DNA of 64,000 nt from an uncultured Elusimicrobia bacterium (GCA_903879915.1 CAIRNJ010000102.1:13200-77199), one strand, 5' to 3'. Numbered from the stretch's first letter, positions 4,985 through 31,019 are shown. Numbers and translations are program-made. Notes: generated from the sequence alone by a model not told the origin.

Positions 4985-5063
4985 ACATATTTCCCTAAAG
5001 GCCTATCGGCCTATCGCCCTAATTGCTCAGGCCCGCCCGCCCGGTGAGTATCATAATATACCA

Positions 5064-6356: not shown

Positions 6357-6367
6357 AACTGCAGCCG

Positions 6368-8083: not shown

Positions 8084-8129
8084 AAAGTTCTCCGTTTCCG
8101 CTGCGCCGGGTCTGTCCGCTCTTAACCAC

Positions 8130-8157
8130 TTAAACCTCAGATAGCGTAAAAAGTTCC
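8130..8157 (-). promoter_or_regulatory. ECF-type promoter candidate, site B (upstream of the X-domain gene)
   Basis: The minus strand reads cGGAAC-TTTTTACGCTATCTGAG-GTTTAAg (N17 spacer). Intergenic, between the PEBP stop (8168) and ATG 8083. Same architecture as sites A, C and D. Confidence 0.45.
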
Positions 8158-8167
8158 GCAAGCTCCG

Positions 8168-8788: not shown

Positions 8789-8802
8789 ATTTCCTCCCGA
8801 TA

Positions 8803-8830
8803 TTAAACAGCTTTGCCCGCAAAAAGTCCA
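8803..8830 (-). promoter_or_regulatory. ECF-type promoter candidate, site D (upstream of the stand-alone PEBP gene)
   Basis: The minus strand reads tTGGAC-TTTTTGCGGGCAAAGCT-GTTTAAt (N17). The -35 is imperfect (TGGAC). It lies only about 15 nt from the ATG, so the leader would be very short. Confidence 0.3.
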
Positions 8831-8850
8831 ACTGCCCGCCGCCCACTTTC

Positions 8851-11800: not shown

Positions 11801-12612
11801 GAGAGCGCGGCCGTAAGAACGCCGCCCGTCACCTGCGCGGGGTCGGACGAAAGCGACGGGGCTCCGGACAGGGCGTAGAGCGTGTACGTATAAAGCCTGT
11901 TGCCGCCGCCGCAGGGCGGGTTGTAGGCTGTTCCCGCCGCGCCGTCGCTTTTGCCCGCCGTGCCGCCGCCGGTGGTGTTCTTGACGAAGCCGGAGCTGCC
12001 CGCCGGTATGCTGTATAGGACCCAGTTATATTTCGTCTCCAGCTGCGGAGTTAGTTCGGAAATGGTCAGCGCGAACTGCTGCGTGCCGGACGGCGCGCTG
12101 GTCCAGGCCATCGCCGGCGAAGACCCGGCTCCGGAGCAGGAATATTCCAGCGCCATAGCCCCGCCGCTCGTGCCCGCGCCGCTCTCCAGGGTGAAAGTCC
12201 CCTGGCTGACAACGGTCACTGTATGGCTTACGCTCCCGGCCCCCGCGGAGTTGGAGGCCGTAAGGGTTACACTATAACTGCCGGACGAGGCGTAGACGTG
12301 TGTCGGGTTCTGTGCCGCGCTGGTTGCGCCGTCGCCGAAGTTCCAGTCCCAGGAAGAGGGGCTGTTGACGGAGGCGTCGGTAAAGGTTACGGCCTGGCCG
12401 GCGGCCGGTGAAGCAGGAGAATAAGTGAAGGCCGCGGCCGGCGCGGCGGCCAGCGCGGCGGCCGCGGCCGCCCGCTTGTGTTCCGTCACCTTTTCGTCCA
12501 TCGTAGTCACCGCATGTTTTACCGCGCGGGTCATGCCCATATTGATCCCGGCGGACAGCGCGGCGGTCAGCGGGAACAGCGCGGCGAACAGCAGGCAATA
12601 AAGTTGTTTCAT
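8851..12612 (-). CDS. 1253-aa secreted modular protein: SP-[PKD-PEBP]-[PKD-PEBP]-PKD-X domain-[PKD-PEBP]
   Basis: Signal peptide MKQLYCLLFAALFPLTAALSA. Four PKD-type repeats (F.[FY].P..P..G..V.FTD.S...P.SW.W.FGDG..S....P.H.Y...G.Y.V.L...N). Three PEBP-like modules (P.[ML][AS]W...P.GTQQFAL...KYNWVLY.IP...Y.PPC...Y.Y.LYALS). Central ~420 aa are paralogous to ORF 6368..8083. The ATG lies 1 nt after the stop of the upstream barrel gene. Confidence 0.8.
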   Translation of the reverse strand: MKQLYCLLFAALFPLTAALSAGINMGMTRAVKHAVTTMDEKVTEHKRAAAAAALAAAPAAAFTYSPASPAAGQAVTFTDASVNSPSSWDWNFGDGATSAAQNPTHVYASSGSYSVTLTASNSAGAGSVSHTVTVVSQGTFTLESGAGTSGGAMALEYSCSGAGSSPAMAWTSAPSGTQQFALTISELTPQLETKYNWVLYSIPAGSSGFVKNTTGGGTAGKSDGAAGTAYNPPCGGGNRLYTYTLYALSGAPSLSSDPAQVTGGVLTAALSGLIISSAAMTLTYTQAAVSSAPVAAFSFSPASPTAGQTVTFTDTSAYTPASWAWNFGDGSSSTLQSPTHVFSSSGSYTVSLTAANTAGSSAVSHTVTVAAAGAFALTSPVGAEGAAMAAEYTCDGAYASPALAWSGAPAGTQQFALLMTTLPGDGSTKWNWVLYAIPAAASGLDKNTSGVGTAGVNSDTQSQEYAAPCSQGPGPKVYTYTLYALSGAPSLPAADLVTGDVLTSAISSLIISSAALNLTYARANVSPAFSFYPSSPTTYNTVSFTDASQNAPVSWAWDFGDNTSTSTAQYPTHVYSSAGSYTVTLRVANSISSATLTRSITVTVPAYNISQGISDQAQGTTLAFDALGLMNANLGSQSYFPPGKVADYTGFQFLRDSDPSNMGHNPDFTGLTSNSVIRILSDSQLAQLAALAVSQADQVNEYAYHRFRLIQAFRRLMDGNIPSGATGLSLSAVTAVSQELYLMDGQIAFDRALAYANVYNSMTRAQLAELDAMKGVGASSWTVTDANYMKTRVETALGANASNTTMNTLVMTYAGDLFSWYSGNVEADVYFCPERQGTYYGGFYIKDAPAMNAPQGVSYTIDSALTGNAGAALLDSSLGYVASTQAAIMTNLIEVQRSNMEGIVAVRAQIAALLRTLLVSTASSAAVRAQVLALSSATYGTLDGINNYYYATTFKQVADSLSAAQRAHLKTDFWDGLLISTYSNGTPYDYSVCRSTYLYSDTTTDPAVLARITPYIDDTDYLFATDAPSAAFSFSPSSPAAGGTVSFTDASGGAPASWAWDFGDGATSSAQNPAHVYASSGTYTVTLTASNSAGSGSASHMVSVTQALFTLTSGAGTGGGAMTLEYSCSGSSSSPAMSWTNAPSGTQQFALTMSEVTPQLETKYNWVLYGIPGSSSGFAKNTTGGGTLGTSDGPLGTAYNPPCGGGNRLYTYKLYALSAAPSLSSPVTGSVLTAALSGITISSATMTLTYTAP
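8854..9534 (-). repeat. C-terminal PKD-PEBP module (aa about 1027-1253)
   Basis: By eye its protein sequence is about four-fifths identical to the N-terminal module (11755-12432). The DNA differs at many third-codon positions. Confidence 0.7.
9544..10800 (-). other. X domain within the giant protein (aa about 605-1023), uncharacterised, with four LTXXQ-like motifs
   Basis: Motifs LSDSQLAQLAAL, MTRAQLAELDAM, VASTQAAIMTNL and LSAAQRAHLKTD occupy positions equivalent to LTAEQKQLFIDL, LSAEQKAYFAKM, LTPAQRRHVDAV and LTEEQRAALVKL of ORF 6368..8083. Confidence 0.6.
11047..11730 (-). repeat. Second PKD-PEBP module (aa about 295-522)
   Basis: Its PEBP part (STKWNWVLYAIPA...APCSQGPGPKVYTYTLYALS) is the module closest to the stand-alone PEBP gene (KTKWYWIIYDIPA...GPGPKKYIYTVYALS). 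Confidence 0.65.
11755..12432 (-). repeat. First PKD-PEBP module (aa about 61-286)
   Basis: Near-duplicate (at protein level) of the C-terminal module at 8854-9534. Confidence 0.7.
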
Positions 12613-12613
12613 A

Positions 12614-13207
12614 TCAGTACAGGAACAGCAGTGTCTGCGTGTCGCTCTTTTTGGAATTAGAGCGCTTCTTCTGCTGTTTCCCCCTTTTCCCGGCGGTACG
12701 GGCCGCGCCGGCTTTGCCGCCGCCCCAGTAGAAATTAAGCCCGAAATTAGCCACGTATTCGATAGCCCCGGCCGATACGGGCTCGTTTTTGTCCCGCAGG
12801 TAAATATAGGCCGGTCCGAAATCGGCCTGCAGCGAGGCGTCCGGAGCTAGGAAGCATTCGAAGCCTGCGAACAATTCCCCCGCGGCCCCGGCCCCGCGGC
12901 TGACTTCTCCCTTGAACTGTATGTAATCCGCTTCCGCGCCCAGGAACAGGTACATCGCCGCCGACGGGCGGTAATAGCTGTACAGGCGCAGGCCGCCCAC
13001 CGTAACGCCGCCGTCTGCCTGCCCTTTGGCTTCCAGCGCGTAGCGGTCGCTCATGAAATACCTGATACTTAGCCCCGGGTAATTGAAGCCCAGCCCGAAG
13101 GTGCCCCTGCCGGCACCCTGGCCGGCGCATGCCGCGCGGCAGCCCAAAAGCAGAATGCTGAAGCAGAAGCAGACGACCGCTGCGGTATTCCGGAAAGGCT
13201 TGAGCAT
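12614..13207 (-). CDS. Small outer-membrane beta-barrel protein (8-strand type) with a Lys/Arg-rich C-terminal tail
   Basis: Preferred start is ATG 13207 (MLKPFRNTAAVVCFCFSILLLGC...). Alternating aromatic/Gly beta-strand pattern (FGLGFNYPGLSIRYF, LRLYSYY, YLFLGAEADYIQF, ELFAGFECF, IEYVANFGLNFYW). Then the tail GGGKAGAARTAGKRGKQQKKRSNSKKSDTQTLLFLY. The start codon choice (13207, 13219 or 13231) is uncertain. Confidence 0.55.
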   Translation of the reverse strand: MLKPFRNTAAVVCFCFSILLLGCRAACAGQGAGRGTFGLGFNYPGLSIRYFMSDRYALEAKGQADGGVTVGGLRLYSYYRPSAAMYLFLGAEADYIQFKGEVSRGAGAAGELFAGFECFLAPDASLQADFGPAYIYLRDKNEPVSAGAIEYVANFGLNFYWGGGKAGAARTAGKRGKQQKKRSNSKKSDTQTLLFLY

Positions 13208-13241
13208 ATGCGTATCCATACACAGGTACACATCCGCTTAT

Positions 13242-13269
13242 TTAAACAGCGAAACCGGAAAAAAGTTCC
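13242..13269 (-). promoter_or_regulatory. ECF-type promoter candidate, site A (upstream of the barrel + giant protein genes)
   Basis: The minus strand reads cGGAAC-TTTTTTCCGGTTTCGCT-GTTTAAa (N17), immediately after the terminator hairpin and about 35 nt upstream of ATG 13207. Confidence 0.45.
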
Positions 13270-13294
13270 GCCCTGAAAACGGATGTTTTCAGGG
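13259..13294 (-). terminator. Rho-independent terminator after the sigma/anti-sigma/LTXXQ operon
   Basis: Perfect 10-bp stem CCCTGAAAAC/GTTTTCAGGG (13271-13280 / 13285-13294) with a 4-nt loop. On the minus strand it is followed by CGGAACTTTTTT. It starts 42 nt after the stop at 13336. Confidence 0.65.
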
Positions 13295-13335
13295 CGTGTA
13301 TGGGGAGCGCGCAAGCCTGGGCGCGGCGCGAGGTT

Positions 13336-13743
13336 TTAGCGCGGTGCTCGCCTGTCCGGGTCTTCTCCGTCGCGGGGCGGCGGCGGCCTGTTTTCGCGGC
13401 GTTTGGAATCGTTGTCCAGTTCTTCCAGCCTGGCGTACTGCTCCGGCGTAAGGACGATCCTCAATTCCGACTTGATCCTCCGGCGCAGTTCTTCTAATCT
13501 GGGCTGTATGGAATCCTTCGTCTTTTTTACTTCTGGCCGGTATTTATTGAAAATGGCCGAAACCTGCTCCTGCTGGGGGCCGGAGAGGCCGAGCTCGCGG
13601 GTGAATTTTTCTATCGCGCCTTCGGCGGGGACCGGCTGCGGCGGCCTGCGTTTAAGATGCATATGATAATAATCGGAGAACAGGGCGCCCATCAGGACGC
13701 CCGCGGCCACGGCTGCGGCTATCTGGTTCCAGCGTATGTTCAT
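13336..13743 (-). CDS. Periplasmic LTXXQ-motif protein (Spy/CpxP/ZraP-like, the 'periplasmic heavy metal sensor' family)
   Basis: Start moved to ATG 13743, which overlaps the anti-sigma stop (ATGA). N-terminal TM/signal anchor IAAAVAAGVLMGALF, then LSGPQQEQVSAIF and LTPEQYARLEEL motifs. Basic/Pro-rich tail. Confidence 0.7.
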   Translation of the reverse strand: MNIRWNQIAAAVAAGVLMGALFSDYYHMHLKRRPPQPVPAEGAIEKFTRELGLSGPQQEQVSAIFNKYRPEVKKTKDSIQPRLEELRRRIKSELRIVLTPEQYARLEELDNDSKRRENRPPPPRDGEDPDRRAPR

Positions 13744-14228
13744 TTGTCCGCTCCTTCCAGCATGGTCAAAAGGTTCCCCCCGCCGGCCGCAGGGCCTTCG
13801 GAGAAGATATTGGAAAGGGGTGAGCCTGAACTCCGGGCGGCCGGAACGGAGAACTGGCGCGCCGGCATAAGGCCGGTCTCGACGCACAGAACGTAGACGG
13901 CAAAGGAGGCCAGGGTCATGGCCGGCACTTTCCACCAGCCCGCCAGCGCCGCGCGCGTATCCGGTGAAAGCGCGAACGGGTTGAAACCGGAAGCCTGTTC
14001 TTCCGCCTGCCCGGCCCGGAGCTTCGCCATCAGGGCATCCACGAATTTATCGCCCAGCGCTGGAGCCTCGTACAGCTCCAGAGCCTGCCAAGCTTTGGAG
14101 AGCAGTTCAGCTTCTTTGCGGCAGGAGGCGCATTCTTCAAGGTGGCCGCTAAGTTCCGCCTTTTCGGAGTCATTCAGGCTGCCGGAAAGGCCGCCGGCTG
14201 AAATTTCCATGGCTCTTTTACAGTTCAT
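13740..14228 (-). CDS. Anti-sigma factor, zf-HC2 type, single-pass membrane protein
   Basis: H-x3-C-x2-C motif (HLEECASC) near the N-terminus and one predicted TM segment (VPAMTLASFAVYVLCV). Immediately downstream of the ECF sigma gene. Confidence 0.75.
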   Translation of the reverse strand: MNCKRAMEISAGGLSGSLNDSEKAELSGHLEECASCRKEAELLSKAWQALELYEAPALGDKFVDALMAKLRAGQAEEQASGFNPFALSPDTRAALAGWWKVPAMTLASFAVYVLCVETGLMPARQFSVPAARSSGSPLSNIFSEGPAAGGGNLLTMLEGADK

Positions 14229-14248
14229 AAACTATCCCCTCTCATAGG

Positions 14249-14276
14249 TATAACCGCCGATCATTGAAAAAGTTCC
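14249..14276 (-). promoter_or_regulatory. ECF-type promoter candidate, site C (inside the 3' end of the sigma gene, upstream of the anti-sigma gene)
   Basis: The minus strand reads cGGAAC-TTTTTCAATGATCGGCG-GTTATAc (N17). The GGAAC overlaps the last sigma codons (..AELFQ*). The -10-like element differs (GTTATA), so it could be coincidental. Confidence 0.3.
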
Positions 14277-14848
14277 GCCAGTTTTTCTTTCAGGCCGAGT
14301 TTCGCCCTGTGAAGAATGGATTTTACCGCCTTGGCCGAGCAGCCCATGACCTCCGCGATAGCTTCGTAGGAGAGTTCGTCGTAGCGGCAGAGCAGCACGG
14401 CAGTTCTTTGGTTCTCAGGCAATGAAGCCAGGGCTTTTTTTACCGCCTCGGCCTGTTCTTTTCTGATCAGCAGCTCCGCGGGCGGCAGATCTTTCGGGTC
14501 AGCCAGCTGCAGGCCGGGCGCGTCTTCCTGCGCTTCAGGCTTTTCGTCCAGAGGGACGAAAAGGCCCCTATGCCCGCGTTTAGCCAGAAAATTCAGACAG
14601 GTGTTGCGCGTAATGGTGAACAGCCAGGTGGTGAACTTCGCTTTTACCGTGTATTTGTTCCGGGCGTTGTAAACTTTAATAAAAACTTCCTGCGCGGCGT
14701 CCTCGGCGTCGGCGGCGTTGCCCAGGAACCTGTAAGCGAAGGCGAAAACCCGCTGCTTATGGGTTTTGACCAGCTCTATGAAGCAGGACTCCTCCCCGGC
14801 GATAAAGCGGAGCATCAACCGCGCGTCCTGGTCGGGATCCTCTGTCAT
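14261..14848 (-). CDS. ECF (group 4) RNA polymerase sigma-70 factor
   Basis: 195 aa. Region 2 (AEDAAQEVFIKVY...FTTWLFTITRNTCLNF) and region 4 (LPENQRTAVLLCRYDELSYEAIAEVMGCSAKAVKSILHRAK). The ATG overlaps the stop of the upstream PD40/TPR gene (ATGA). Confidence 0.9.
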   Translation of the reverse strand: MTEDPDQDARLMLRFIAGEESCFIELVKTHKQRVFAFAYRFLGNAADAEDAAQEVFIKVYNARNKYTVKAKFTTWLFTITRNTCLNFLAKRGHRGLFVPLDEKPEAQEDAPGLQLADPKDLPPAELLIRKEQAEAVKKALASLPENQRTAVLLCRYDELSYEAIAEVMGCSAKAVKSILHRAKLGLKEKLAELFQ

Positions 14849-17322
14849 TTATCTATGGACCGTGTTTCCTGCGCGGCCAGCGCGCTCTTCAGGTGACGGG
14901 CCGCGCTGTCCAGGTCGGGGTCGATGCTTAACGCTTTCCTGTAGGAAGCCAGCGCTTCGTCCCGGCGGCCCAGCTTTTCCAGCACCGCGCCCAGGAGGTC
15001 GTACGTACCCGCGTATTTCGGCTCCAGCCTTATCACTTCTCGGTAATGGGTTTCGGCCTCGCCGAACTCGCCGCGCGCCGCGAGCAGGGCCGCTAAAATG
15101 TCGTGAATGGCCACGTTGTTGCGGTCCAGCCGCGCCGCTTCCCTGTATTGCTTCACGGCCTCGGCCGGAGTACCCTGCGCTTCAAGGGCGGCGCCCAGCT
15201 CGGCGTGCAGCAGCGCGGTGTCGGGGCTCAGCTTCAGCGCCGCCAGGTATTTCTCTATGGCTTCAGCGAGCATTGCTTTTCTTTCCGCCCCGGAATATTC
15301 CGCCGGGCCCGGCGGCACATAGTCGTAGCGGGCTTTCAGCGCCGCGTGGTAATTGGTCCTGTCATCAGGCAGCAGGCTCTGCATGCCCAGGGCGCCGGCC
15401 AGATAATAGAACACGATAGCCGAATCCGGCCGCGCATTTATTGAGTCCCTGTAATGGCCGATCGCGCCTTTCAGGTCGCCGCGCTTAGCCAGGAGCAGGC
15501 CCATATTGGCGTGCGCGTGGGGATCGTTGGGGGCTAATTTAAGCGCCTCGTTCAAATGAGAGAAAGCCTCCTCGCGGCTGCCGGTCTTCTCCAGCGCAAC
15601 GCCCAGCAGGATCTGCACTTCGGTGTTCCCTGGGTCGAGCTCCAGCGCTTTGCGGTACGAAGCTATGGCTCCGCCGCTGTCGTTGGCCCTGGCGAACTCG
15701 AGGCCCGCCCGGTGGAAGGAAAGGCTGTCCAGGAACCTTTCGCGTATCTTTTTAAGTATGCCGCCTTTAGCCGGGAGGAATTCCGGGATGTTGGCCGCCC
15801 TGTCGGGCGCGGTAAAGCCGTCCAGCAGGACAGGGGGCGTATCGTTGCCCTGCGCGTCGATATGGGTAAGAAAAAGCTGTGTATAGGGCGTGTTGGCCTT
15901 GGAGGCGAAGACCAGCCAGCGGCTGTTGGGCGACCAGCTGTGCCAGGAGTTCATCGTGGGTTGGTTGCAGCGCATTTTCCTGGCTTCGCCCCCGCCGGCG
16001 GGCATGATATAGAGCTCGCTGTCGGGCTGCAGCAGCATGAAACTTTTCGCTTTGCAGAATATTATCCATTTCCCGTCGGGCGAATATTTCGGGAAGAAAT
16101 TGCTCATGCCGTTATCGGAAGCGCCCTGCAGCGGTTCCGGCTTGCCGCCGCGGCCTTCGTTGAAAGCAACGCGGTAAAGGTCGAACAGGAATTTCTGGCC
16201 GCCTTCCAGGAATTCCGCGCATTCTTCCTTCGCCAGCAGCACCTTGTCCCTATCGCGCAGATTTTTCAGCTTATGCGCCAGGTTCCTGGCGAAAACGATA
16301 TACTTGCCGTCGGGGCTCCAGGCGGGGTTGCTCTGTACGAATTCGGGGTCGTCAGCGCCCGGCAGCGCCTGGAAGGTCTTAGCCGCGCGGGAATAGACGG
16401 CCAGGATGCCGCTGACCGGAAAAAAAAGCTGCGAGAAGGCCAGCCCCGGCGTGGCCACGAACACCGAGCGGTCCTTGACCGTGCTGACCGCGTACCGCCC
16501 GTCCGGGGAAACCTGCGAAAGCAGGCCGAAGGTCTGGACGCCTTCCGTCCTTTTATAATCGTGCCAAGTGATGATCTTGCTTTTGTCGAGGATGGTCTCT
16601 TCGAGCACCCGGGCGATGGCGTAGGAGCCTTTGTCGTTGGCGTAATCCACGTCCATGCCCAGCACCGAGCCGTCGGCGGAAAAGGAATGGCAGTTGCCGC
16701 AGACCGGCAGATTCTCCAGCACTACCGGGGGCTGCGTTCTCAGGGAGACCTTCCCCAGCCGCCAGCGGATGCGCGAGGGGTCCTTTACCGCCTCGCTGAA
16801 CGGCAGGTTCACTTCCCTGTAGAACAGCGGCGCCTCTACTTTGTCTTTGGAGGTGCTGAAGGAAATGCTGCCCGCAGACAGGATATTTCCGGGCGCGCCG
16901 CGGGCGGCGCCGGCCACGGTAAGCCTGGCGGTCCGCTCCAGCGACCGGCGTTTGATAAGCTCCCAGTCGTCGTTGCCGGGAGTCCACTCCGGGGCCGCGG
17001 AAATAAAGCTCAGGCGGCCGCCGGCCGCGCCGGAGAATTCTATAGTCACCAGCCACAGGTCCGCGGCGGCGTTGTTGTCTTTCCAGCGGAACCCGGGGGC
17101 CGCTATGTCCGCCGGGAAAAGCGTGCCGTCGAAAGGTTTCTCGAAGGTTATGCCGCCGTCAGCCGCTCCGCTCCTGTAAGCCGCCAGCAGGGCGGCCAGG
17201 GCGGGGTCGGGCCTGGCCGGCGCGGCCGAGATAGTGCGCAGCAGCCCGGCGCCCAGTACGGCCAGCAGCAGCAGCGCGGCGCGGCGGTGCTGCTGTACTA
17301 TGAAGAGCGTGATGGTTCTCAT
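14845..17322 (-). CDS. Secreted protein: N-terminal domain with a single CXXCH motif, TolB-like PD40 beta-propeller repeats, C-terminal TPR repeats
   Basis: Signal peptide. VCGNCHS at aa 207-213. PD40-type repeats (VSPDGRYAVSTV, WSPDGKYIVFAR, YSPDGKWIIFCK, WSPNSRWLVFAS). At least five TPR-like units in the last ~270 aa (for example AIASYRKALELDPGN, AIGHYRDSINARPD, ALASYRKALSIDPD). Confidence 0.75.
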   Translation of the reverse strand: MRTITLFIVQQHRRAALLLLAVLGAGLLRTISAAPARPDPALAALLAAYRSGAADGGITFEKPFDGTLFPADIAAPGFRWKDNNAAADLWLVTIEFSGAAGGRLSFISAAPEWTPGNDDWELIKRRSLERTARLTVAGAARGAPGNILSAGSISFSTSKDKVEAPLFYREVNLPFSEAVKDPSRIRWRLGKVSLRTQPPVVLENLPVCGNCHSFSADGSVLGMDVDYANDKGSYAIARVLEETILDKSKIITWHDYKRTEGVQTFGLLSQVSPDGRYAVSTVKDRSVFVATPGLAFSQLFFPVSGILAVYSRAAKTFQALPGADDPEFVQSNPAWSPDGKYIVFARNLAHKLKNLRDRDKVLLAKEECAEFLEGGQKFLFDLYRVAFNEGRGGKPEPLQGASDNGMSNFFPKYSPDGKWIIFCKAKSFMLLQPDSELYIMPAGGGEARKMRCNQPTMNSWHSWSPNSRWLVFASKANTPYTQLFLTHIDAQGNDTPPVLLDGFTAPDRAANIPEFLPAKGGILKKIRERFLDSLSFHRAGLEFARANDSGGAIASYRKALELDPGNTEVQILLGVALEKTGSREEAFSHLNEALKLAPNDPHAHANMGLLLAKRGDLKGAIGHYRDSINARPDSAIVFYYLAGALGMQSLLPDDRTNYHAALKARYDYVPPGPAEYSGAERKAMLAEAIEKYLAALKLSPDTALLHAELGAALEAQGTPAEAVKQYREAARLDRNNVAIHDILAALLAARGEFGEAETHYREVIRLEPKYAGTYDLLGAVLEKLGRRDEALASYRKALSIDPDLDSAARHLKSALAAQETRSIDK

Positions 17323-17337
17323 GGCGGCTGGTTTCCT

Positions 17338-20300
17338 TTACGGCCAGAAATCCCGCGGATAGAGGCGCACCACTTCGGCGGCTTCCCCTTTTTCGCGGAC
17401 GAAACTCTCGTAGCTCCGGATCAGGCTGTCCGGTCCTGTTAAAAAAGCGCCGGCCTGCGGCGAGTCCGAGACCCTGCCGCCGGGCAGCCCCGGCAGCACC
17501 CGGCCGAGCGCCTTCAGGAAGCGCGCGCGCACCAGCGTCAGCGTGCCGGGCCTCCGGGCGAGCTCGAGCAGCGCGTATTTATAGGCGTGCACGGCCTCCG
17601 GGCGGTTGCCCTCTTCCAGGTCGTAGGCCAGGGCGGCGCCGCGCGACGAGAAACTCCCCGCGGCGCGGTAGTCGGCGAAGGAAGTGGCCAGGCTGTATTC
17701 GAGCTGGGAAGTATCTTCTATCTTCGTCTCCGCCGCTACCCCGGCCGCGAAGCGGAGCGTCTGCGCGGGGTCGGGGCATTTGTCGGCGTAATACCTGGCC
17801 TGACCTATCGAAGCGTAAAGCCCCAGCCCGTTGCTGTAAGCCAGCCCGGCGCCCCAGGTGCGCATGAAAAGCGAGTGCGCGCCGCCGCCCGCCAGGATCC
17901 CCAGGGCCAGGGCGTCGGGCAGGTCGCCGGGCTGAAAGGAATTATAGCCCGCTGCCGGCGTCCAGACGCTGATCGTGCCGGTCTTGCCGCCGTTGTTGAC
18001 CAGCGCTACGTGCGCCGGCCGGCCTATGCCGGGCAGGCGCTGGCGCAGCCGGCCTACTACCAGGTCCTTGCGCGGCGGCGCCGCCGCCTGCCTGCCCCTG
18101 GGCAGGCGGTCCAGCAGCGTTTCCAGCTGCCGGGCCGCCCGGTCGCTGTTCGCGGCGTTGCCGTTGATATGCACCCGCGTACCGGTGCGCACCAGCACGC
18201 CCGCCGCCAGCGCCTGCAGCCGGCGGATGGTCTCGGCGGGATGCCCGACGTCGGCGAGGAAATCGGAGGCCAGCGTCCGAAGGTCGGCGCGCCAGGAATC
18301 ATCGGGCAGGTGCGCGAATTCCCAGCGCAGATATTCGCCGAACTCGCCGTCCACCCCGGCCAGGAGTTTTTCCGCCGCGGCCCTGTCCGAGGTTTTCGCG
18401 GCGGCCATTACTTCGGCCGCGGCGGCGCGCAGGGCGGCCAGCCGCTCCGGCGCCGGGTCCTCCAGGCGCCAGCGCAGGCGGTTGAGGCTGCGCAGCACGG
18501 TGAAGGGGCTGGAGATGTTCATGTACAGCGGCCTGTCCTGGTATCTGTAGGCGGCTACCGCCTCGGACACCCAGGATTCCTCGTCCTGCTGGAAGATGCC
18601 GCGCCAGCCCTGAATGCCGGCCCGGAGCGTGTCTATCAGCCGCTCCCGGGCCGCCGGCGTCAGGCCGGGGCGGAGCAGATAGTTCTCTATCCAGGCTACG
18701 GCCCGGTCGACTTCTTCCGGCGAGGAAGCGGTAGCGCTGAAGCTGAGCTCGGCGCGGTCGCTGCGCGGGTAGGCCGCTACGCCTACGCCGGCGTCGTAGA
18801 TCTCGGCCATGATGCGCTCGCGGGCCGCGGCGTAGTCCAGCCGCTCGCCCGCCCGGGTGACCACGCCCACGGAGCCGAGGGCGCCGCCCAGCAGGGGCAG
18901 CAGCTCCCGGTCCCCTTCCGGCACGCCGCGCAGGTCGAAGTTCACGCTGATATCCGTGAAAGGCGTCTGGAACTGCGTTCGCACCAGCCGCGCTCCTGAA
19001 GCCATAAGACTTTCGCTCCAGGCAAGCTGGTCCAGTTCCAGCGGGGGCTCGCGCAGAAAAGACGGCTCGGGCGCGCCGCGCTCAAGCGCTTCGAGCTCGG
19101 CCGTGGCAGACGCGGTCTCGGCGCGGTAGCGCTCCAAGGCTTTCGCCTCAGGCAGACCGTATGCAACTGTCAGACGCTGCGAAACCGCTTTGAGGCGTTG
19201 CTGCTTCAGACCCTTCTCATGCTCGAGGAGGGCGGGATCAGGAAGGACCGCGGATACATATGGTTGTTCCAGCATGCCTGCGCGCTCGAGCGCTGCCGCC
19301 CAGGGATTCTTCCCCTCACCGAGCTCCGCGAGCAGGCGGTCTAGGGCCGCGTCTTCGGACAGCGATTTATCGAAACCCGGATCGGCGGAAAGTCCGTCCA
19401 GAAACCTGTGCCAGCTTTCGCCGGTGGAGCGTTCGCCGAACATAGGAGGCCCTTCCATCGCCTTAAGCCGGGAGCGCCGGTACGAGAGCATGCGTGAGCG
19501 CGCCCGGTCCGCTACCTCGGCCAGTTCAGGGCTGCCGGGTTTGAGATCGTGCAACCAGCGTACGCGCTCGTTTACTATGTCTCGCAGCCGCCCCAGTTTG
19601 GCCGGTGTAACATTGGCCGGCGGTATGCCGGAAAGCCACAGCATGGCATAAGAAGCGGGCAGGGCCTCGGCATCAGCGCCGATGTTGGTAGCGCCGGAAT
19701 CAAGTTTTCTGGTTTTCTGGTCTATCAGGTCGCGGTACAAGTAGGAAGTTTCACCTCCGCCTAGGAGGTCAATAGCCAGGTCAATGCGGGGCTTTTCGTC
19801 AGTGCTGAACGTCTTTCCAGGCGGCCAGGCCAGCAGCGCGTCCTGCGGCACCGGCGTACCATCGGAAGGGAAACTGCCTATCCGGACCTCGCGGCTCTTC
19901 AATGGCTCAAAAGGCGGCAACCCGGAGTAGGAGCCTGCAGGCGGTTGCGGCTCCAGGCGCAGGATCTCGTCGTTGAGTCGCGCCAGGAAGTCGGCGGCGT
20001 CCCAGCCCTGCGGCAGAGCCGCTATCATCTCCATGTTCCCGTCCAGATGGTAATGGGTGGCGTGAAAAGCGCGTACATCGGCCGGCGAAAGTTCCCATAT
20101 CTTTTCCGGTCTTCCCCCCTGAACGCGCGCCAGTGGGTGCTTTGGGCCGTACAGCATCTCGGTGAGCTGATACCAGCGTATCCAGGCCGGCTGTTCCGCA
20201 CTCGCCACCATTTCGGTATATACTGTTCCCTTTTCCTCCAGCTTAAGCAGTCCGCCTTCCTCCACCACGGCGGTATGCGCTATCTCACGGCGCATTTCCT

Positions 20301-20781
20301 CGTCCGTAATGTTCGGGCGCATCAGGGCGGTCAGATAAGAACTGAACAGTTCGTAGAACTCGGCAGGGCCGGCAGCCGTTGAAAACTGGTAGTTCGTTAA
20401 ATCGGAATATGAGACCGCGTTATGTTTGCCCATCCGCATCTGCATAAGCGTGTTGAGTTCCCGTCCCATCGTACCTTTGCCTATAAGGAGATGCTCCAGC
20501 GTATGCGCCGCGCCGCGGTCGTCGGCTGGAAGCGTGCGGAAATAGACGGAGACCTGCGGCACAGAGTCGAAGAACAGCACATCTACGGTCAGCCCGCGGT
20601 CATGCACGAAACGGGCCCCTTTGGGTCCGCCTGAGGGGTCCAGGTACAGGGCGCTGACCCGGAATGTTTTCGCAAATACCTGATCTTGTTTCAAGGCGGT
20701 GAGGTCGCCGGGGCCTGCGGCGTTAGCCAGGGCGGAGAGCATTAGAGATAGCCAAAGGAAAATTATCGGGCGTGGAGCCAT
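17338..20781 (-). CDS. Oversized (1147 aa) secreted M16 (pitrilysin/insulinase) family zinc peptidase
   Basis: Signal peptide MAPRPIIFLWLSLMLSALANA. Inverted zinc motif HxxEH (AAHTLEHLLIGKG) followed by a downstream Glu-containing segment (VYTEMV). About twice the length of typical M16 subunits. Confidence 0.75.
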   Translation of the reverse strand: MAPRPIIFLWLSLMLSALANAAGPGDLTALKQDQVFAKTFRVSALYLDPSGGPKGARFVHDRGLTVDVLFFDSVPQVSVYFRTLPADDRGAAHTLEHLLIGKGTMGRELNTLMQMRMGKHNAVSYSDLTNYQFSTAAGPAEFYELFSSYLTALMRPNITDEEMRREIAHTAVVEEGGLLKLEEKGTVYTEMVASAEQPAWIRWYQLTEMLYGPKHPLARVQGGRPEKIWELSPADVRAFHATHYHLDGNMEMIAALPQGWDAADFLARLNDEILRLEPQPPAGSYSGLPPFEPLKSREVRIGSFPSDGTPVPQDALLAWPPGKTFSTDEKPRIDLAIDLLGGGETSYLYRDLIDQKTRKLDSGATNIGADAEALPASYAMLWLSGIPPANVTPAKLGRLRDIVNERVRWLHDLKPGSPELAEVADRARSRMLSYRRSRLKAMEGPPMFGERSTGESWHRFLDGLSADPGFDKSLSEDAALDRLLAELGEGKNPWAAALERAGMLEQPYVSAVLPDPALLEHEKGLKQQRLKAVSQRLTVAYGLPEAKALERYRAETASATAELEALERGAPEPSFLREPPLELDQLAWSESLMASGARLVRTQFQTPFTDISVNFDLRGVPEGDRELLPLLGGALGSVGVVTRAGERLDYAAARERIMAEIYDAGVGVAAYPRSDRAELSFSATASSPEEVDRAVAWIENYLLRPGLTPAARERLIDTLRAGIQGWRGIFQQDEESWVSEAVAAYRYQDRPLYMNISSPFTVLRSLNRLRWRLEDPAPERLAALRAAAAEVMAAAKTSDRAAAEKLLAGVDGEFGEYLRWEFAHLPDDSWRADLRTLASDFLADVGHPAETIRRLQALAAGVLVRTGTRVHINGNAANSDRAARQLETLLDRLPRGRQAAAPPRKDLVVGRLRQRLPGIGRPAHVALVNNGGKTGTISVWTPAAGYNSFQPGDLPDALALGILAGGGAHSLFMRTWGAGLAYSNGLGLYASIGQARYYADKCPDPAQTLRFAAGVAAETKIEDTSQLEYSLATSFADYRAAGSFSSRGAALAYDLEEGNRPEAVHAYKYALLELARRPGTLTLVRARFLKALGRVLPGLPGGRVSDSPQAGAFLTGPDSLIRSYESFVREKGEAAEVVRLYPRDFWP

Positions 20782-20862
20782 GATTAATTTTACTACAGTT
20801 GCAAGGTTATCTGTACATAAGGTGCCTAGATACGGCCACTTATAAGAAAGGCCAGAGCACTA

Positions 20863-22353
20863 TTATGTATCGTTAAATGGCGGTTCCTTGCCGGAAGCTT
20901 TTACCCATGGTAGATGCGCAAATCTTTCAGGGCTATATCCGGTGGCCATTGTAATGTTATCATACCCTCTAGTATGCAAGTCTTTTGCTATATCTTCACC
21001 TTTAACTCCGCCGCCTAGTTCAGAATCAATGTAAAACGGAGTGTCTTTTGGCAAAGTCCCCAAAACAGATGTAAGCTCTTCAGCGTTTTTATACGTTCTT
21101 AGATCCATTCGGGTGGCTTTGGCGGCCATTTCCCAATTCATGCGCACTAATTTGTCATCGTCAACCAATATCACCGTACGTTTTTTTGCAGGCTTAAATG
21201 TTGGAAGCGTTAGAATTACTATTGTTCCGTGATCAGGTTTGGATTCAATTTTAAATACGCCGCCCCAGTTTTCAATGCTTATCCGCGCGTGATACAGTCC
21301 CAGCCCGTTGCCGCGGGTTTTTCCGTGTGTTTCTCCCCTACGCCCGAGCTTCGCTAGTATTTCAGGCGGAATCCCTTTGCCGTTATCCTTCACGGTTATT
21401 GAAACCATCCCATCGGCGCCAGACAACCCTACTGTGACGGCTCCTGGACCAGTAAGAGCCTCAACGGAATTGTTTATGAGGTTGGATAACAGCCGCTGGA
21501 ATTCCTTGGGATCAGTAAGAACTTTTAATTCATCTGAGGAATTGTGTAACTCGAATATGACGTCGGTTCTATAACTATACTGGAGACGCTTTTCGGCCAG
21601 AACTTCCTCTATAAGCGGTGTCAAGGCGCATGCAGTAATCTTACCGCTTTCAACAGTAATGGCGGAAGGCGTACGGTATTTCCTCAGCAAGTCGTCCGCT
21701 ATTGTATTCATGCGGGTCACCGCGCCGTTCATAAGTGCGCGTTGTTCAGCCGGGATCTCAAACCCCGTTGCCGCGGTTCTCAGTGCCGCTAGAGGAGATC
21801 GTATGTCATGCGCCACTTGTGCGGCAAGGTTCGAATAGGATTCTTTTATCCGCAAATCTAGAAGGAGATTATAGTCCCTTATCAGCCTTCTGCGTTCAAA
21901 ATAAGCTATGGGTAGGGATAGTAACGCTATAATAAGCCAGGCAATAGTGGCCCAGATTACGGGCATCAACCGGGAATAGTAAAACAGCATAGCCCCAGAT
22001 GAAAACCGGCGTTCTTCATCAAAATATAAACGCACGTTGGCAGAGGCGTAAAGCAAACGATTGCATTTTTCCGCATCAATCGGCACACTGAACCCTTTTT
22101 CCGCTCCGGTGGGGCGCCAGGACATGCCGGAAAAATCGTGCGACATGGACGAGGTCAGGGTGATAATAGTCTGACGCGTGTCACCAGACAATATCGAGTC
22201 ACGCGAAGCGGCGGAAAGTTGGTCTCCCAGGCGCTGTTTGAAATAAGCGGTGAAAACCACGGACAACATCAATGCCACTATATAGATTACCAGCTGGAAC
22301 ATCAGGAACTTTATAAAAAGTCTCTTAATGGATTGCTTTATTTCAGGGTCCAT
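20863..22353 (-). CDS. Hybrid sensor histidine kinase (2 TM, HisKA, HATPase_c, C-terminal receiver)
   Basis: H-box AAQVAHDIRSPLAAL. N/G boxes (LINNSVEAL, DNGKGIP, GNGLGLY). REC-like C-terminus (VILVDDD...FYIDSEL...KEPPF). Preferred ATG is 22353 with an AAGGAG RBS. Overlaps the upstream SBP-like gene by 16 nt. AT-richer than the surroundings. Confidence 0.8.
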   Translation of the reverse strand: MDPEIKQSIKRLFIKFLMFQLVIYIVALMLSVVFTAYFKQRLGDQLSAASRDSILSGDTRQTIITLTSSMSHDFSGMSWRPTGAEKGFSVPIDAEKCNRLLYASANVRLYFDEERRFSSGAMLFYYSRLMPVIWATIAWLIIALLSLPIAYFERRRLIRDYNLLLDLRIKESYSNLAAQVAHDIRSPLAALRTAATGFEIPAEQRALMNGAVTRMNTIADDLLRKYRTPSAITVESGKITACALTPLIEEVLAEKRLQYSYRTDVIFELHNSSDELKVLTDPKEFQRLLSNLINNSVEALTGPGAVTVGLSGADGMVSITVKDNGKGIPPEILAKLGRRGETHGKTRGNGLGLYHARISIENWGGVFKIESKPDHGTIVILTLPTFKPAKKRTVILVDDDKLVRMNWEMAAKATRMDLRTYKNAEELTSVLGTLPKDTPFYIDSELGGGVKGEDIAKDLHTRGYDNITMATGYSPERFAHLPWVKASGKEPPFNDT

Positions 22354-23876
22354 TTTAAATTTCTCCTTAGCCTCCAAAGCGCATCACCGGCAATAGCGGG
22401 CGGGTAGTTAAATGCCCACGGTTTGCGCGCCACGGAAGCATACGGGAGCAAGCCGATGGGCAGCGCACGCGCGTCGTAAAGTGTTTTATATTGAAGCGCC
22501 TGGATCATTCTCATTCGCGCGTTTTTGTCTTGGGACGCTATATAATCCGCGAACCACTTTCCCTTTTCAGCGGGGGTCATACTGAAAAAATCCATGTCCA
22601 GATAATAAGCCAGCAATCCTACATCGTCCTGAAAGCCCATATCGCAGCCAAAAAGATAAAAATCCGGTTCATGCACAACTTTGCTGCTCTTAGGTGGATA
22701 AAGGTCTTGATATTCTACCTTCGGCATCCATTTTTTTATCTCGTCTCCGTCCAGCCAAAAATAGCTGTATAGCCGTTTCGCTTCTACTTTCTTTTTTAGT
22801 ACCACTTCAGCCCCGGTATTTAGAAGCGCTTGTATTTCCCTCAGCTGCATTTTGGAAAGACCACCCTCCATTTGAAATATCTGGTCCGGAATTTCAAGCA
22901 TGCGGCGTCTTAGCGGGTAAAGGCCGCGCAGTTTTCTGGCTATAAAAAATCTTTCCTCTCTTGATAGTCTTCTCCTTCCTCGCTCGGTAAACAGGACAAA
23001 TAGCATCCTAACCGGCCGGCTAAGATGAATATTGTACCCGGGATTTGCGGCAACAAAGTCCACCTTGTCTTCCGGCTTAAGCACGGCGCTTATCCTAAGA
23101 TAATCAATTGTTTTATCTGAAAGCATGCCAAGTATTTCTTCGTTTTTAAGATATTTAGTGAAGGCAATAATTTTAATATTTTGAGGTATTTTATCTGAAT
23201 AATGATAATGGAACGGATTAGCTTTTAGCTTTATATTCCCTGCGCCTGGGTAGGCGTTCACATAATATGGCCCGGAGGTGTTTCTGTAATCGTTGATTTT
23301 GAAGGTTTTCTGGTCTATGGAGCCCCGCGGAATCACGGCATAGGTAATATTTGTCAGCAAATGGAAAAGGAACGTTTTCCGCTCGGCGAATTTCATTACG
23401 AGATTCTGCCCATTGTCACTAACTTGCAATCCGGGGCAAGGATCCTGCAAACTCATAAGTGCAGTTTTGCCGCATAACAGTTTGCTTAAAAAACCATACC
23501 CGCTTCCGCCAAGAATAAAAAGCCGCTTCAGACTCTGTTCTGCATCAATGGCATTTATTGGCAGTCCGTCCACTGTTTTAAGGTCTGTGCGCATCTTGAA
23601 GCGCGCTTCATTCCCCACCCACTCGAACCTCTCTGCAATTCCTGAAACAATCTCGTTTCCTGCGGAGTATTCTAAAAGCGGGCTAAAAATATTTTCTAAA
23701 AAAAAATAATCCCTGTTATATATGATGGCGGCAGTGTCATAATAAGAAGGTGGATTTGTCGTGTCTAGCAGCACCTTAAGTTCCGGGGATGGTCTTGACC
23801 ATAAAATCCAGGCAACGAAAAAAATGACCGACCCAGTAAGCAGGGACGGCCATTTTTTGCGTAAGGGGATACGCAC
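22338..23876 (-). CDS. Membrane-anchored solute-binding-protein family 5 (peptide/nickel type)-like protein
   Basis: GTG start and N-terminal TM anchor. FSPLLEYSAGNEIVSGIAERFEWVGNEARFKMRTDLKTVDGLPINAIDAEQSLKR matches the SBP_bac_5 N-lobe pattern (L...d..g.i.P.lAe.we...d...y.F.lR......dG.p..A.D). No ABC permease or ATPase genes nearby. Confidence 0.6.
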   Translation of the reverse strand: MRIPLRKKWPSLLTGSVIFFVAWILWSRPSPELKVLLDTTNPPSYYDTAAIIYNRDYFFLENIFSPLLEYSAGNEIVSGIAERFEWVGNEARFKMRTDLKTVDGLPINAIDAEQSLKRLFILGGSGYGFLSKLLCGKTALMSLQDPCPGLQVSDNGQNLVMKFAERKTFLFHLLTNITYAVIPRGSIDQKTFKINDYRNTSGPYYVNAYPGAGNIKLKANPFHYHYSDKIPQNIKIIAFTKYLKNEEILGMLSDKTIDYLRISAVLKPEDKVDFVAANPGYNIHLSRPVRMLFVLFTERGRRRLSREERFFIARKLRGLYPLRRRMLEIPDQIFQMEGGLSKMQLREIQALLNTGAEVVLKKKVEAKRLYSYFWLDGDEIKKWMPKVEYQDLYPPKSSKVVHEPDFYLFGCDMGFQDDVGLLAYYLDMDFFSMTPAEKGKWFADYIASQDKNARMRMIQALQYKTLYDARALPIGLLPYASVARKPWAFNYPPAIAGDALWRLRRNLKWTLK

Positions 23877-23881
23877 TTCAG

Positions 23882-24091
23882 CTATTTTCCCTTGAGTACC
23901 TTTGGGTGGGTAGGCGGCGGGATGGGGTCCGGTTGAGGTGATGTGTCGTCCTTTCCGGCGTTCAGGCTAATATCATAGCCAGTAGAAGAAGTAAGCGCAT
24001 ACCCATGCTCGGGGAACAGCGACAATGCTATGAAAGATAACATTCCGGTAAAAATAATGTTCACCAGAGCCGCTAAAAGTGTTTTCTTCAT
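23882..24091 (-). CDS. Small (69 aa) secreted/anchored protein with a Pro-rich C-terminus
   Basis: ATG 24091 with GGGGAA upstream. MKKTLLAALVNIIFTGMLSFIALSLF hydrophobic N-terminus, then ...DDTSPQPDPIPPPTHPKVLKGK. Its stop lies 5 nt before the SBP-like gene start. No recognisable family. Confidence 0.4.
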   Translation of the reverse strand: MKKTLLAALVNIIFTGMLSFIALSLFPEHGYALTSSTGYDISLNAGKDDTSPQPDPIPPPTHPKVLKGK

Positions 24092-24200
24092 TGTATTCCC
24101 CAATTAGAAACGGTAGCCATTTCCCCATTACTTCATTATATATACTTTAACAAATAATGATGAAGAGCAAAAGTGGCATTAGGCCTATTCGGGTATAGGT

Positions 24201-30309: not shown

Positions 30310-30755
30310 ATGTCGATTATCTTGCTGAACTTCGCGAACGAGGGTTCCATTACGTCTTTTTTGTATTTTGCCCAGAGCTGCGCATCCCATATCTCCGCCT
30401 TATTGCCGACGCCCCTTATCACGATATCTTTCTTAAGAGAGGCGTAAACCTTTTGATTTTGAGGTACCAGTATCCTGCCCTGCTTGTCCAGCTGGGCGTC
30501 CGCGGCGTTGCCGAAGAAAGCGCGCTTGAAAGCCCGCTCGTCTTCCTTGTTCTCCGATTTGAAGATCTCCATGTTGTTGGCGATCAGCTCCTCCCACTTG
30601 GACGGCAGGAAAATATAAAGACACTGGTCCAGCCCCGTGCTGAGCATCAGGTGGTCTTTTTTCTCCGCGGCGAGGGCCTCGCGAAAACGCGCAGGTATAA
30701 AAACCCGGCTCTTCGGGTCCATCACGCAGTTATATTCTCCGTAAAGTGAGCTCAT
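30306..30755 (-). CDS. mraZ: Transcriptional regulator MraZ
   Basis: 149 aa with two SpoVT/AbrB-like halves (DPKSRVFIPARFR and DKQGRILVPQNQK). First gene of the dcw cluster. Confidence 0.9.
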   Translation of the reverse strand: MSSLYGEYNCVMDPKSRVFIPARFREALAAEKKDHLMLSTGLDQCLYIFLPSKWEELIANNMEIFKSENKEDERAFKRAFFGNAADAQLDKQGRILVPQNQKVYASLKKDIVIRGVGNKAEIWDAQLWAKYKKDVMEPSFAKFSKIIDI

Positions 30756-30779
30756 GATCTTTTCAACATTTTAAAACAT

Positions 30780-30819
30780 TATTCGCCACTATCCAACACT
30801 GTCCACCACTTTGCACCAC
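30780..30819 (-). promoter_or_regulatory. Putative MraZ operator: four 10-bp-phased direct repeats
   Basis: The minus strand reads GTGGTGCAAA GTGGTGGACA GTGTTGGATA GTGGCGAATA. It lies 25-65 nt upstream of the mraZ ATG, directly downstream of the candidate promoter. Confidence 0.55.
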
Positions 30820-30828
30820 CGGTTAGTA

Positions 30829-30859
30829 AGTATACAGTATGGCTCCCCCCTTTTGTCAA
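30829..30859 (-). promoter_or_regulatory. Candidate sigma70 promoter of the mraZ (dcw) operon
   Basis: Perfect -35 TTGACA (30859-30854). The -10 is either TGTATA at 17-nt spacing or TATACT at 19 nt (30834-30829). Confidence 0.4.
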
Positions 30860-30917
30860 TACCATGACAAAAAAGTCTTTGTTTTATAGATATATTTTAT
30901 TGGAAACAGCGCGGCCG

Positions 30918-30952
30918 AAAAATAGCCGACTTGAGATTAGTCAAGGCGGCTA
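30918..30952 (-). terminator. Rho-independent terminator after the peptidase-MA-like gene
   Basis: On the minus strand: TAGCCGCCTTGA-CTAATC-TCAAGTCGGCTA (12-bp stem, one mismatch) followed by TTTTT. It separates that gene from the mraZ promoter. Confidence 0.6.
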
Positions 30953-31019
30953 TTATTAAGGAAAGGATATATATACGGCGGGTGAACGCGGAATATAGCG
31001 CGCGGCCGCGCGGCCGCGG

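Follow-up and report, generated by a model that had tools for sequence, protein, structure and literature searches.

The stretch analysed here (the window) comprises 64,000 nucleotides of DNA from an uncultured Elusimicrobia bacterium (GCA_903879915.1, CAIRNJ010000102.1:13200-77199), and this report concerns a low-G+C island at positions 20782–24200, next to murF, with three minus-strand genes for a small exported protein, a membrane-anchored solute-binding protein (SBP) of family 5, and a hybrid sensor histidine kinase. We consider it probable that these genes are a recently acquired sensory operon, in which the tethered SBP would be the co-sensor of the kinase and the ligand would be peptide-like, with the product of the small open reading frame (ORF) as the best candidate. 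The main argument for the SBP as a co-sensor is its one-to-one, transporter-free pairing with the kinase across two phyla. This pairing is well supported by comparison of related sequences, the co-sensor role would follow by analogy with known systems, and the small-ORF peptide is a plausible ligand; the SBP–kinase contact, the peptide nature of the ligand, the route of the phosphorelay, and its output are what we infer from the whole. The features of the island, in window coordinates, are:

20782..24200, no strand: low-G+C island, bounded by the stop of murF and the start of the M16 peptidase gene, 45.7% vs 63% G+C
24104..24200, minus strand: upstream intergenic region, AT-rich, presumed promoter region of the operon (read from the sequence)
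23882..24091, minus strand: small exported ORF, 69 aa, ATG start (ORF call, hydropathy)
22338..23876, minus strand: membrane-anchored family-5 (cluster C, OppA-like) SBP, 512 aa, GTG start (Pfam, AlphaFold2 model, Foldseek)
20863..22353, minus strand: hybrid sensor histidine kinase, 496 aa, ATG start (Pfam, alignment of 33 family kinases, hydropathy)
22234-22329, minus strand: first transmembrane (TM) segment of the kinase, TM1 (hydropathy)
21976-22233, minus strand: periplasmic domain of the kinase, ~86–90 residues (hydropathy; no Pfam match)
21895-21975, minus strand: second TM segment of the kinase, TM2 (hydropathy)
21184-21855, minus strand: DHp/CA of the kinase, with the phospho-acceptor His182 at 21808-21810
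20866-21180, minus strand: receiver-like domain of the kinase, ~105 residues, with DDD at 21154-21162 and the putative acceptor Asp443 at 21025-21027
20782..20862, minus strand: spacer of 81 nt from the kinase stop to the co-directional M16 peptidase gene, with no convincing terminator in the scan

The order of the genes is small ORF, SBP, and kinase, with a 5-nt gap between the first two and a 16-nt overlap between the last two, which reproduces the tight co-directional packing described in an earlier note on this DNA. Shine–Dalgarno sequences precede each of the three starts (GGGGA before the ATG of the small ORF and AAGGAG before that of the kinase), and an alternative TTG start at 24103 would extend the small ORF to 73 aa. 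The three genes are thus predicted to form a translationally coupled operon; all reading frames are intact, and the catalytic motifs (H-box, HATPase_c, and DDD/D/T/K) are preserved. The perfect TATAAT that had been pointed out upstream of the small ORF is present (24140-24135, minus strand) but loses its significance, being one of four in the island, with no good −35 hexamer scored for it and no entry in the promoter scan; alone, it is no evidence of a promoter. Scanning of the operon for sigma70 promoters and terminators gave nothing beyond chance at the expected places, and a sigma54 −24/−12 motif is absent upstream of the window operon and of most core operons of its relatives. Read-through from the kinase into the M16 gene (17338-20781) is possible.

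The SBP scores 31.5 bits (E = 1.4e-7) against Pfam SBP_bac_5 (PF00496; gathering score, 32.4), a family for which most of its homologues have a precomputed match, while NCBIfam offers a model neither for this SBP nor for the small ORFs and the YcaO-like protein described below. The AlphaFold2 model, generated with an alignment of 39 homologues (pLDDT, 91.6; pTM, 0.88), found its best PDB matches by Foldseek in OppA, MppA, Aapf, and NikA (E = 1e-24 to 1e-22), with full-length alignments (TM, 0.60–0.72; ~520 aligned columns). Based on this model, a three-domain cluster-C fold is confidently predicted, so that the initial label of the protein as SBP_bac_5-like holds for the fold (OppA/MppA/NikA), although the Pfam score itself lies just below the gathering cut-off. 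The N-terminal hydrophobic helix (aa 9–27; 23796-23849) has no obvious cleavage site, and hydropathy analysis found an N-terminal anchor or a lipobox in nearly all family members, in agreement with the membrane anchoring proposed earlier. Cys135 and Cys147 are invariant in the SBP alignment, a pair that fits an extracytoplasmic location. Taken together, the OppA-like fold, the N-terminal anchor, and the Cys pair suggest an OppA-like binding protein that is tethered to the membrane on its extracytoplasmic side. No ABC permease or ATPase gene was seen in the 19-kb insert of the window that holds the island, as had been noticed at first reading, and no BPD_transp or ABC_tran gene was found within 8 kb or more in the neighbourhoods of five annotated relatives.

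The kinase, whose N-terminus MDPEIK is common to its homologues, was matched by HATPase_c with 79.6 bits (E = 3e-22; gathering score, 26.4) and by HisKA with 24.3 bits (gathering score, 26.9). Its H-box, AHDIRSPL, is conserved in Elusimicrobia and can be recognised throughout the alignment of the family kinases. The designation as a hybrid histidine kinase is therefore sound for the DHp/CA part, but the putative receiver is divergent and falls under the Pfam threshold. A receiver profile from 14 homologues matched the solved receiver 2msw in the PDB (E = 0.003), and an hhalign comparison with the genuine receivers of the family's sigma54 activators gave a probability of 85% (E = 6e-6), with the DDD, the D of YIDSD/EL, the T, and the K falling on canonical receiver positions; D14–16, D59, T87, and K105 are invariant in the alignment. 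On these profile comparisons, the C-terminal domain is probably a divergent receiver. The TM–periplasmic–TM module of the kinase is a private one: used as a jackhmmer query, it retrieved all 37 SBP-adjacent kinases and no other ORF in ~1 Mb.

The SBP family comprises 344 clusters at E <= 1e-30 among 1.84 billion representatives and spans Elusimicrobia and Bdellovibrionota (Halobacteriovorax, Bdellovibrio, Bacteriovoracaceae, and Pseudobdellovibrio). Neighbouring genes were classified with phmmer across 49 non-redundant loci (L numbers denote individual loci or contigs), which revealed a module in the order sigma54 NtrC-type regulator (optional), small exported ORF, SBP, YcaO-like enzyme (optional), and kinase. 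A family kinase follows the SBP in 28 of the 36 loci with enough downstream sequence, so that the linkage of the two genes, part of a check proposed in the earlier note, is conserved in two phyla. The YcaO-like gene directly follows the SBP in 17 of these 36 loci, an NtrC-type sigma54 activator adjoins in 17, and Hpt was seen in none of the related loci. The Bdellovibrionota loci contain the activator, an exported ORF of 90–171 aa, the SBP, the YcaO-like protein (~320 aa), and a kinase with one receiver. A first group of Elusimicrobia has an exported ORF of ~60–80 aa, the SBP, the YcaO-like protein (missing from a few loci such as L020, L021, L023, and L048), and a kinase usually with two receivers (one in L015), often with the activator, a 67-aa protein, and a 346-aa sigma54-like protein nearby. 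The group of the window, at 50–61% identity, has the exported ORF, the SBP, and a kinase with the second receiver only, and no YcaO. Relative to the full module, the window copy is reduced: it lacks the YcaO, the Cys motif, and the regulator. Altogether, the cluster-C fold, the tethering, the lack of nearby transporter genes, the kinase placed after the SBP, and the private sensor module favour the original proposal that the SBP presents a ligand to the kinase.

The YcaO-like proteins have no signal peptide and keep the SxxExxER and ELLERD-type motifs and a VPHPxG C-terminus; their scores against Pfam YcaO are 46.6 and 25.2 bits, and that against TIGR03604 is 37.7 bits vs a cut-off of 219. The small proteins of these loci end in motifs such as GGTICF, GTVCI, SSICFKPK, SVICY, and GAICPDK, and 23 of the 25 YcaO-linked small ORFs have a Cys within their last 22 residues. 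This pattern looks like that of a ribosomal precursor that would be modified at its C-terminal Cys before Sec export. In Bacteriovoracaceae, stand-alone paralogues of the exported ORF and the SBP occur with no kinase, YcaO, or regulator nearby (L038, L040, L041, L042, and L045), and TGGCAT-N5-TTGCT/A sigma54-type motifs lie ~40–510 nt upstream of their SBP genes. Since no such motif was found on the opposite strand in 53 upstream segments, the motifs suggest that these small ORF and SBP paralogues belong to a feedback regulon.

Some relatives of the module carry further components. In the Elusimicrobia loci L001 (12427-15186), L004 (1017-3602), and L011 (2441-5204), an NtrC-type activator is followed by a 60–67-aa protein and a ~346-aa protein; the latter can be recognised solely by its sigma54 DNA-binding domain (TIGR02395, 65 bits vs a cut-off of 277) and may be a dedicated truncated sigma54 paralogue. 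L011 (6421-9879) and L059 (1203-4634) each have a tandem second unit directly upstream of the family SBP–kinase pair. It starts with an exported ORF of 62 aa and continues with a canonical SBP_bac_5 protein (102 bits) and a kinase whose sensor domain is different but whose C-terminal receiver is of the same type. Exported toastrack (DUF4097)-like proteins adjoin the module in the clade of the window (L010, 9149-9949; L059, 7814-8800; L001, 15221-15994). Toastrack proteins such as LiaF are kinase accessories; there is none in the window cassette, and a derivation of the small ORF from the N-terminus of these toastrack-like proteins by truncation was rejected (BLASTP E = 11).

The product of the small ORF, also called in public annotation (P0384; L007), begins with MKK, followed by a 23-residue hydrophobic segment (the stretch within residues 3–27) with a possible cleavage site at HGYA|L, and by a tail of 37 aa that is rich in Pro, Thr, and Asp and contains no Cys. 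The predicted mature peptide is LTSSTGYDISLNAGKDDTSPQPDPIPPPTHPKVLKGK. The ORF is homologous to the ORF upstream of the SBP in L001 (BLASTP E = 5e-9), with conservation of the signal-peptide region, and the tails in the group of the window, which are biased in composition, have just a loosely Pro-rich end in common (IPPPTHPK, TKPPPTDK, or TKTPPAKS). Most counterparts have typical cleavable signal peptides ending in AxA. Our detector asked for Lys/Arg close to the N-terminus, a hydrophobic stretch no shorter than 11 residues, a total of 35–220 aa, and an end <= 120 nt upstream. It found an exported small ORF before 31 of 43 SBPs, compared with 28 of the 247 other long ORFs of these loci; the odds ratio is 20 (p = 4e-16, a value that overstates the independence of the sample, because the loci share kinship). 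The suggestion that the small ORF supplies the peptide ligand thus gains from the upstream enrichment and from the pairing of YcaO with the Cys motif in relatives, but the window copy itself has no YcaO, no Cys motif, and a poorly conserved tail.

The composition of the island is sharply different from that of the rest of the window. The G+C content of 20790-24200 is 0.457, compared with a mean of 0.630 (standard deviation, 0.021; minimum, 0.583) for 3.4-kb windows elsewhere and with ~62% for the window overall, which corroborates the visual estimate of about 40–50% for the island and 60–68% for its flanks and answers the G+C part of the proposed check of composition. The strongest part of the drop is at third codon positions (GC3; 0.48 in the kinase, 0.47 in the SBP, and 0.53 in the small ORF, compared with 0.77 in M16 and 0.84 in each of murF, murE, and ftsI), so that amino-acid content cannot account for it. 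The 60-nt lines within the island have a mean G+C of 0.458, with the lowest (0.18–0.22) near 23140, and 32% of them are below 0.45 vs 2.5% outside. The borders coincide with the murF stop and the M16 start, and both edges are sharp, the 200-nt G+C rising from 0.42 at 24200 to 0.62 at 24300 on the murF side and from 0.43 at 20900 to 0.56 at 20700 on the M16 side. Over 33774-22337 and 24003-20179, two ENA contigs from other assemblies (L007 and L008) match the window with 100% identity; as they cross both island junctions, a chimeric assembly is ruled out. A second short G+C dip (0.47) at 30501-31000, upstream of mraZ, is probably no more than the AT-rich promoter of the dcw operon.

Among 41 related loci, the deviation of the cassette from its flanks is largest in the window (−0.176); the next is L006 (−0.11), most loci lie within ±0.05, and the median is ~−0.02. 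The gene order gidAB, mraZ, rsmH, ftsL, ftsI, murE, and murF is kept upstream in MurF relatives (~80% identity). In L057, whose MurF is 80% identical, mraY follows murF by 133 nt and precedes murD, ftsW, and murG, while L058 has a different insert of 4.2 kb (a YHS protein and a TPR protein) at the same junction; with one relative uninterrupted and another carrying its own insert, the murF/mraY junction seems to be a hot spot at which insertions recur. In the window, 19.3 kb (4899-24200) lie between murF and mraY (3813-4898) and split the dcw cluster. Most of this insert has native composition, and only the 3.4 kb adjoining murF are AT-rich; the empty site in L057 is a control for the 19.3-kb insert, not for the 3.4-kb step itself. 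Around the island no integrase, no tRNA (in the window), and no meaningful flanking repeats were found, searches for plasmid or phage similarity gave no match, and an Rfam search was negative. A search for the empty site through the M16 neighbour was dropped, since the metagenome relatives were just 60–62% identical and shared no synteny, and the MurF-based search was used instead. With a GC3 ~0.3 below the flanks, the most deviant composition of the 41 loci, and the adjacency of murF and mraY in L057, the horizontal acquisition proposed in the earlier note is the best reading of the island; it would be a recent one, inserted at the murF/mraY junction of an Elusimicrobia genome.

In the mechanism that we consider, the 512-aa OppA-like protein would be anchored at the periplasmic side of the inner membrane through its uncleaved N-terminal helix and, without a transporter, would serve as the ligand-binding co-sensor of the adjacent kinase. 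It would dock on the family-specific 90-residue periplasmic domain of the kinase and switch autophosphorylation at His182, from which the phosphoryl group would move to the divergent receiver of the kinase itself (Asp443) and then, directly or via some partner, to a regulator encoded elsewhere, a part that the adjacent NtrC-type sigma54 activator would play in relatives. The 64-kb window contains no response regulator, in accordance with the first reading that one with an output domain is missing, and likewise no sigma54 activator, sigma54-like gene, Hpt, or YcaO; lacking a regulator, an Hpt, and a sigma54-like gene in the window, the cassette must use a partner elsewhere or the receiver alone. 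The ligand is most likely peptide-like, and the best single candidate would be the product of the co-transcribed 69-aa ORF, which, as ~37 Pro-rich residues, may be released or displayed in the periplasm. In relatives with YcaO, the putative precursor mostly carries the C-terminal Cys motif, and the window copy would do without that modification step.

A wider and more tentative proposal, to which we give less credence, is that the cassette represents a stripped-down member of an undescribed autocrine or quorum-type peptide-signalling system of diderm Elusimicrobiota and Bdellovibrionota. In such a circuit, a precursor with a Sec signal would be exported, in most members after modification of its C-terminal Cys by the YcaO-like enzyme; the exported peptide would be captured by the membrane-tethered OppA-like receptor; and the dedicated hybrid kinase would read out the captured peptide and pass the signal to the sigma54 activator.

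Several observations weigh against the reading of the island as an acquired, peptide-responsive SBP–kinase operon. With no regulator, Hpt, or YcaO in the window, the acquired cassette might be non-functional or rewired. A database search with the 69-aa ORF gave the identical copy only, its tail is of low complexity and unconserved beyond a loosely Pro-rich C-terminus, and three of the nine loci of the window's clade (L006, L010, and L011) have no small ORF directly upstream of the SBP; furthermore, the 23-residue hydrophobic segment is long and may anchor the protein in the membrane instead of being cleaved off as a signal peptide. The receiver domain scores only 18.1 bits (E = 0.003) against Pfam Response_reg, for which the gathering score is 30.2, and a single-sequence AlphaFold prediction of this domain (pLDDT, 65) led to meaningless Foldseek matches, in place of which the profile–profile comparison was used. 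As the best homologue is only 61% identical, the donor lineage is unsampled.

The part of the insert with native G+C (window 4899-17322) encodes envelope and secreted functions, among them a 597-aa LTXXQ protein, a PEBP protein, a 1253-aa PKD/PEBP protein, and a PD40/TPR protein, and, together with the gene downstream of the kinase, the following:

~4899-6356, plus strand: C11 clostripain-like peptidase (insert annotation)
13336-13935: possible anti-sigma factor, beside the extracytoplasmic function (ECF) sigma factor
14261-14848: ECF sigma factor (insert annotation)
17338-20781, minus strand: exported M16 peptidase, 1147 aa, zinc motif HTLEH intact; the gene follows the kinase at a distance of 81 nt

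Pairs of M16 genes occur beside the module in L001, L009, and L019 too. Identity of the window M16 with these pairs was rejected, no relationship being detectable at E <= 1e-3, so that its adjacency to the cassette may be chance; otherwise, the link may be functional, in peptide processing.

It is conceivable, though rather unlikely, that the SBP and the kinase sense something peptide-like from outside, either a nutrient or a cell-wall cue (for instance, oligopeptides released by proteolysis, or muropeptides), with the small ORF not being the ligand, and that the system tunes secreted peptidases or uptake. The structural matches of the SBP, which include the oligopeptide binder OppA and the murein tripeptide binder MppA, would suit such a function, as would the recurrence of secreted peptidases around the module (the M16 pairs just mentioned, a C11 peptidase in L006, and trypsin-like proteins in L001 and L012) and the presence of M16 and C11 enzymes in the insert of the window; an external cue would also be consistent with the unconserved tail of the small ORF and its lack in the three clade loci. 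However, this explanation accounts neither for the strong enrichment of exported small ORFs upstream of the SBP nor for the YcaO-like gene between SBP and kinase with its matching Cys motif. The window M16, moreover, shows no detectable relationship to the pairs of other loci, and the location of the cassette in the dcw cluster is unique to the window genome.

An equally improbable alternative is that the product of the small ORF is an accessory protein of the membrane or periplasm, acting as a modulator of the kinase or the SBP and not as a diffusible ligand (cf. MgrB/SafA–PhoQ, MzrA–EnvZ, and CpxP–CpxA). For a Sec signal peptide, the 23-residue segment is long, and it suits a single-pass anchor of N-in/C-out orientation; the Bdellovibrionota counterparts, at 90–171 aa with predicted helical bodies, are large for a ligand of OppA type. 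The tight position and poor sequence conservation of the small ORF also recall known small kinase modulators; in MgrB and SafA, the position is conserved and the sequence poorly so. Nevertheless, the cleavable AxA-ending signal peptides of most counterparts argue against a retained accessory, the C-terminal Cys motif beside a YcaO-like enzyme points to a modified peptide terminus instead of a folded regulator, and a family-5 SBP would be an unusual partner without a peptide-like ligand. That the SBP is an ordinary receptor of an ABC importer encoded elsewhere, with an incidental kinase neighbour, or that the cassette is a decaying remnant, is very improbable: the Pfam family is one of transport SBPs and the window has no cognate regulator, but SBP and kinase are kept as neighbours in two phyla, the sensor domain is exclusive to this pairing, no ABC genes lie in the neighbourhoods of the five annotated relatives, and the three frames are intact, with preserved catalytic motifs and translational coupling.

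SBP-dependent two-component sensors are a known kind of system, and SBP-dependent kinases are established, including the hybrid kinase ChiS of Vibrio cholerae with its cluster-C SBP, CBP (PMC12704726, PMC10667598). There, an SBP of family 5/cluster C controls a hybrid sensor through the periplasmic domain of the latter (PMC12704726, PMC10667598), as the SBP of the cassette would do, and in neither case is the gene of the cognate response regulator adjacent. In contrast to the tethered, transporter-free SBP of the window, CBP is a soluble protein that binds chitin oligosaccharides and has a second role with an ABC transporter; the periplasmic domain of ChiS spans ~400 residues, and the kinase ends in a DNA-binding domain, whereas the window kinase has ~90 residues and no DNA-binding domain. 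The module further adds an exported small ORF and, in relatives, the YcaO-like enzyme and the sigma54 activator. In LuxP–LuxQ, TorT–TorS, ChvE–VirA, and BctC–BctE, an orphan binding protein is likewise encoded beside a membrane kinase, and LuxQ, TorS, and VirA are hybrid kinases like that of the window. The LuxPQ relay ends in the sigma54 activator LuxO, similar to the activator that adjoins in relatives (a LuxO model is among the NCBIfam matches). LuxP, TorT, ChvE, and BctC differ, however, in belonging to other structural clusters (ribose-binding-like or the TTT family) and in having small-molecule ligands with no linked ribosomal peptide, and the cassette loci differ from systems of the LuxPQ/TorTS type in that no Hpt protein was found in them.

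Family-5 SBPs that recognise peptides or peptide-derived signals are known from DppA–Tap, OppA/Phr, and Aapf/HEHEAA, Aapf being among the best structural matches of the window SBP. DppA signals to a chemoreceptor, whereas the receptor in the cassette would be a membrane kinase; with OppA/Phr and Aapf, the signal is imported for a cytoplasmic receptor, whereas the cassette has no transporter. The short ORF with a C-terminal Cys beside a YcaO-like protein, a feature of the relatives only, resembles YcaO-dependent pathways for ribosomally synthesized and post-translationally modified peptides (azoline- or thioamide-forming, with stand-alone YcaOs as in bottromycin). The window cassette differs by having neither YcaO nor Cys motif, and the relatives by a precursor with a Sec signal peptide in place of a classical leader and by a short (~320 aa) YcaO-like protein with no conserved E1-like, ocin-ThiF, or TfuA partner. 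MgrB, SafA, MzrA, and CpxP share with the small ORF product the very small size, the N-terminal hydrophobic segment, the short periplasmic tail, and the proximity to a sensor kinase, but no sequence relationship to it was found, and they act on the kinase without an SBP and are not the conserved first gene of an SBP–kinase operon.

No description of the module was found in the searched literature. What was not known before is the combination of parts: the SBP is tethered and of family 5, the sensor domain is private to the kinases beside it, an exported ORF is linked, a YcaO-like enzyme may be present, and the output would go through sigma54. To our knowledge, few SBP-dependent kinases are understood, none comes with an exported peptide of its own that is genetically linked to it, and peptide quorum sensing is regarded as rare in Gram-negative-type bacteria. 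The window cassette appears to be a fresh, un-ameliorated transfer of this sensory module into the cell-wall (dcw) gene cluster. The module also occurs in predatory Bdellovibrio-like bacteria, and a cultured Halobacteriovorax (sp. DA5; L005/L052) carries it in full, which makes the idea of a peptide signal directly testable. If the small ORF does encode the ligand, the module would be a ribosomal-peptide signalling circuit in Gram-negative-type bacteria, of an autocrine or quorum type and built from parts not previously seen together, and YcaO-type chemistry would serve in it for signal making rather than antibiotic making.

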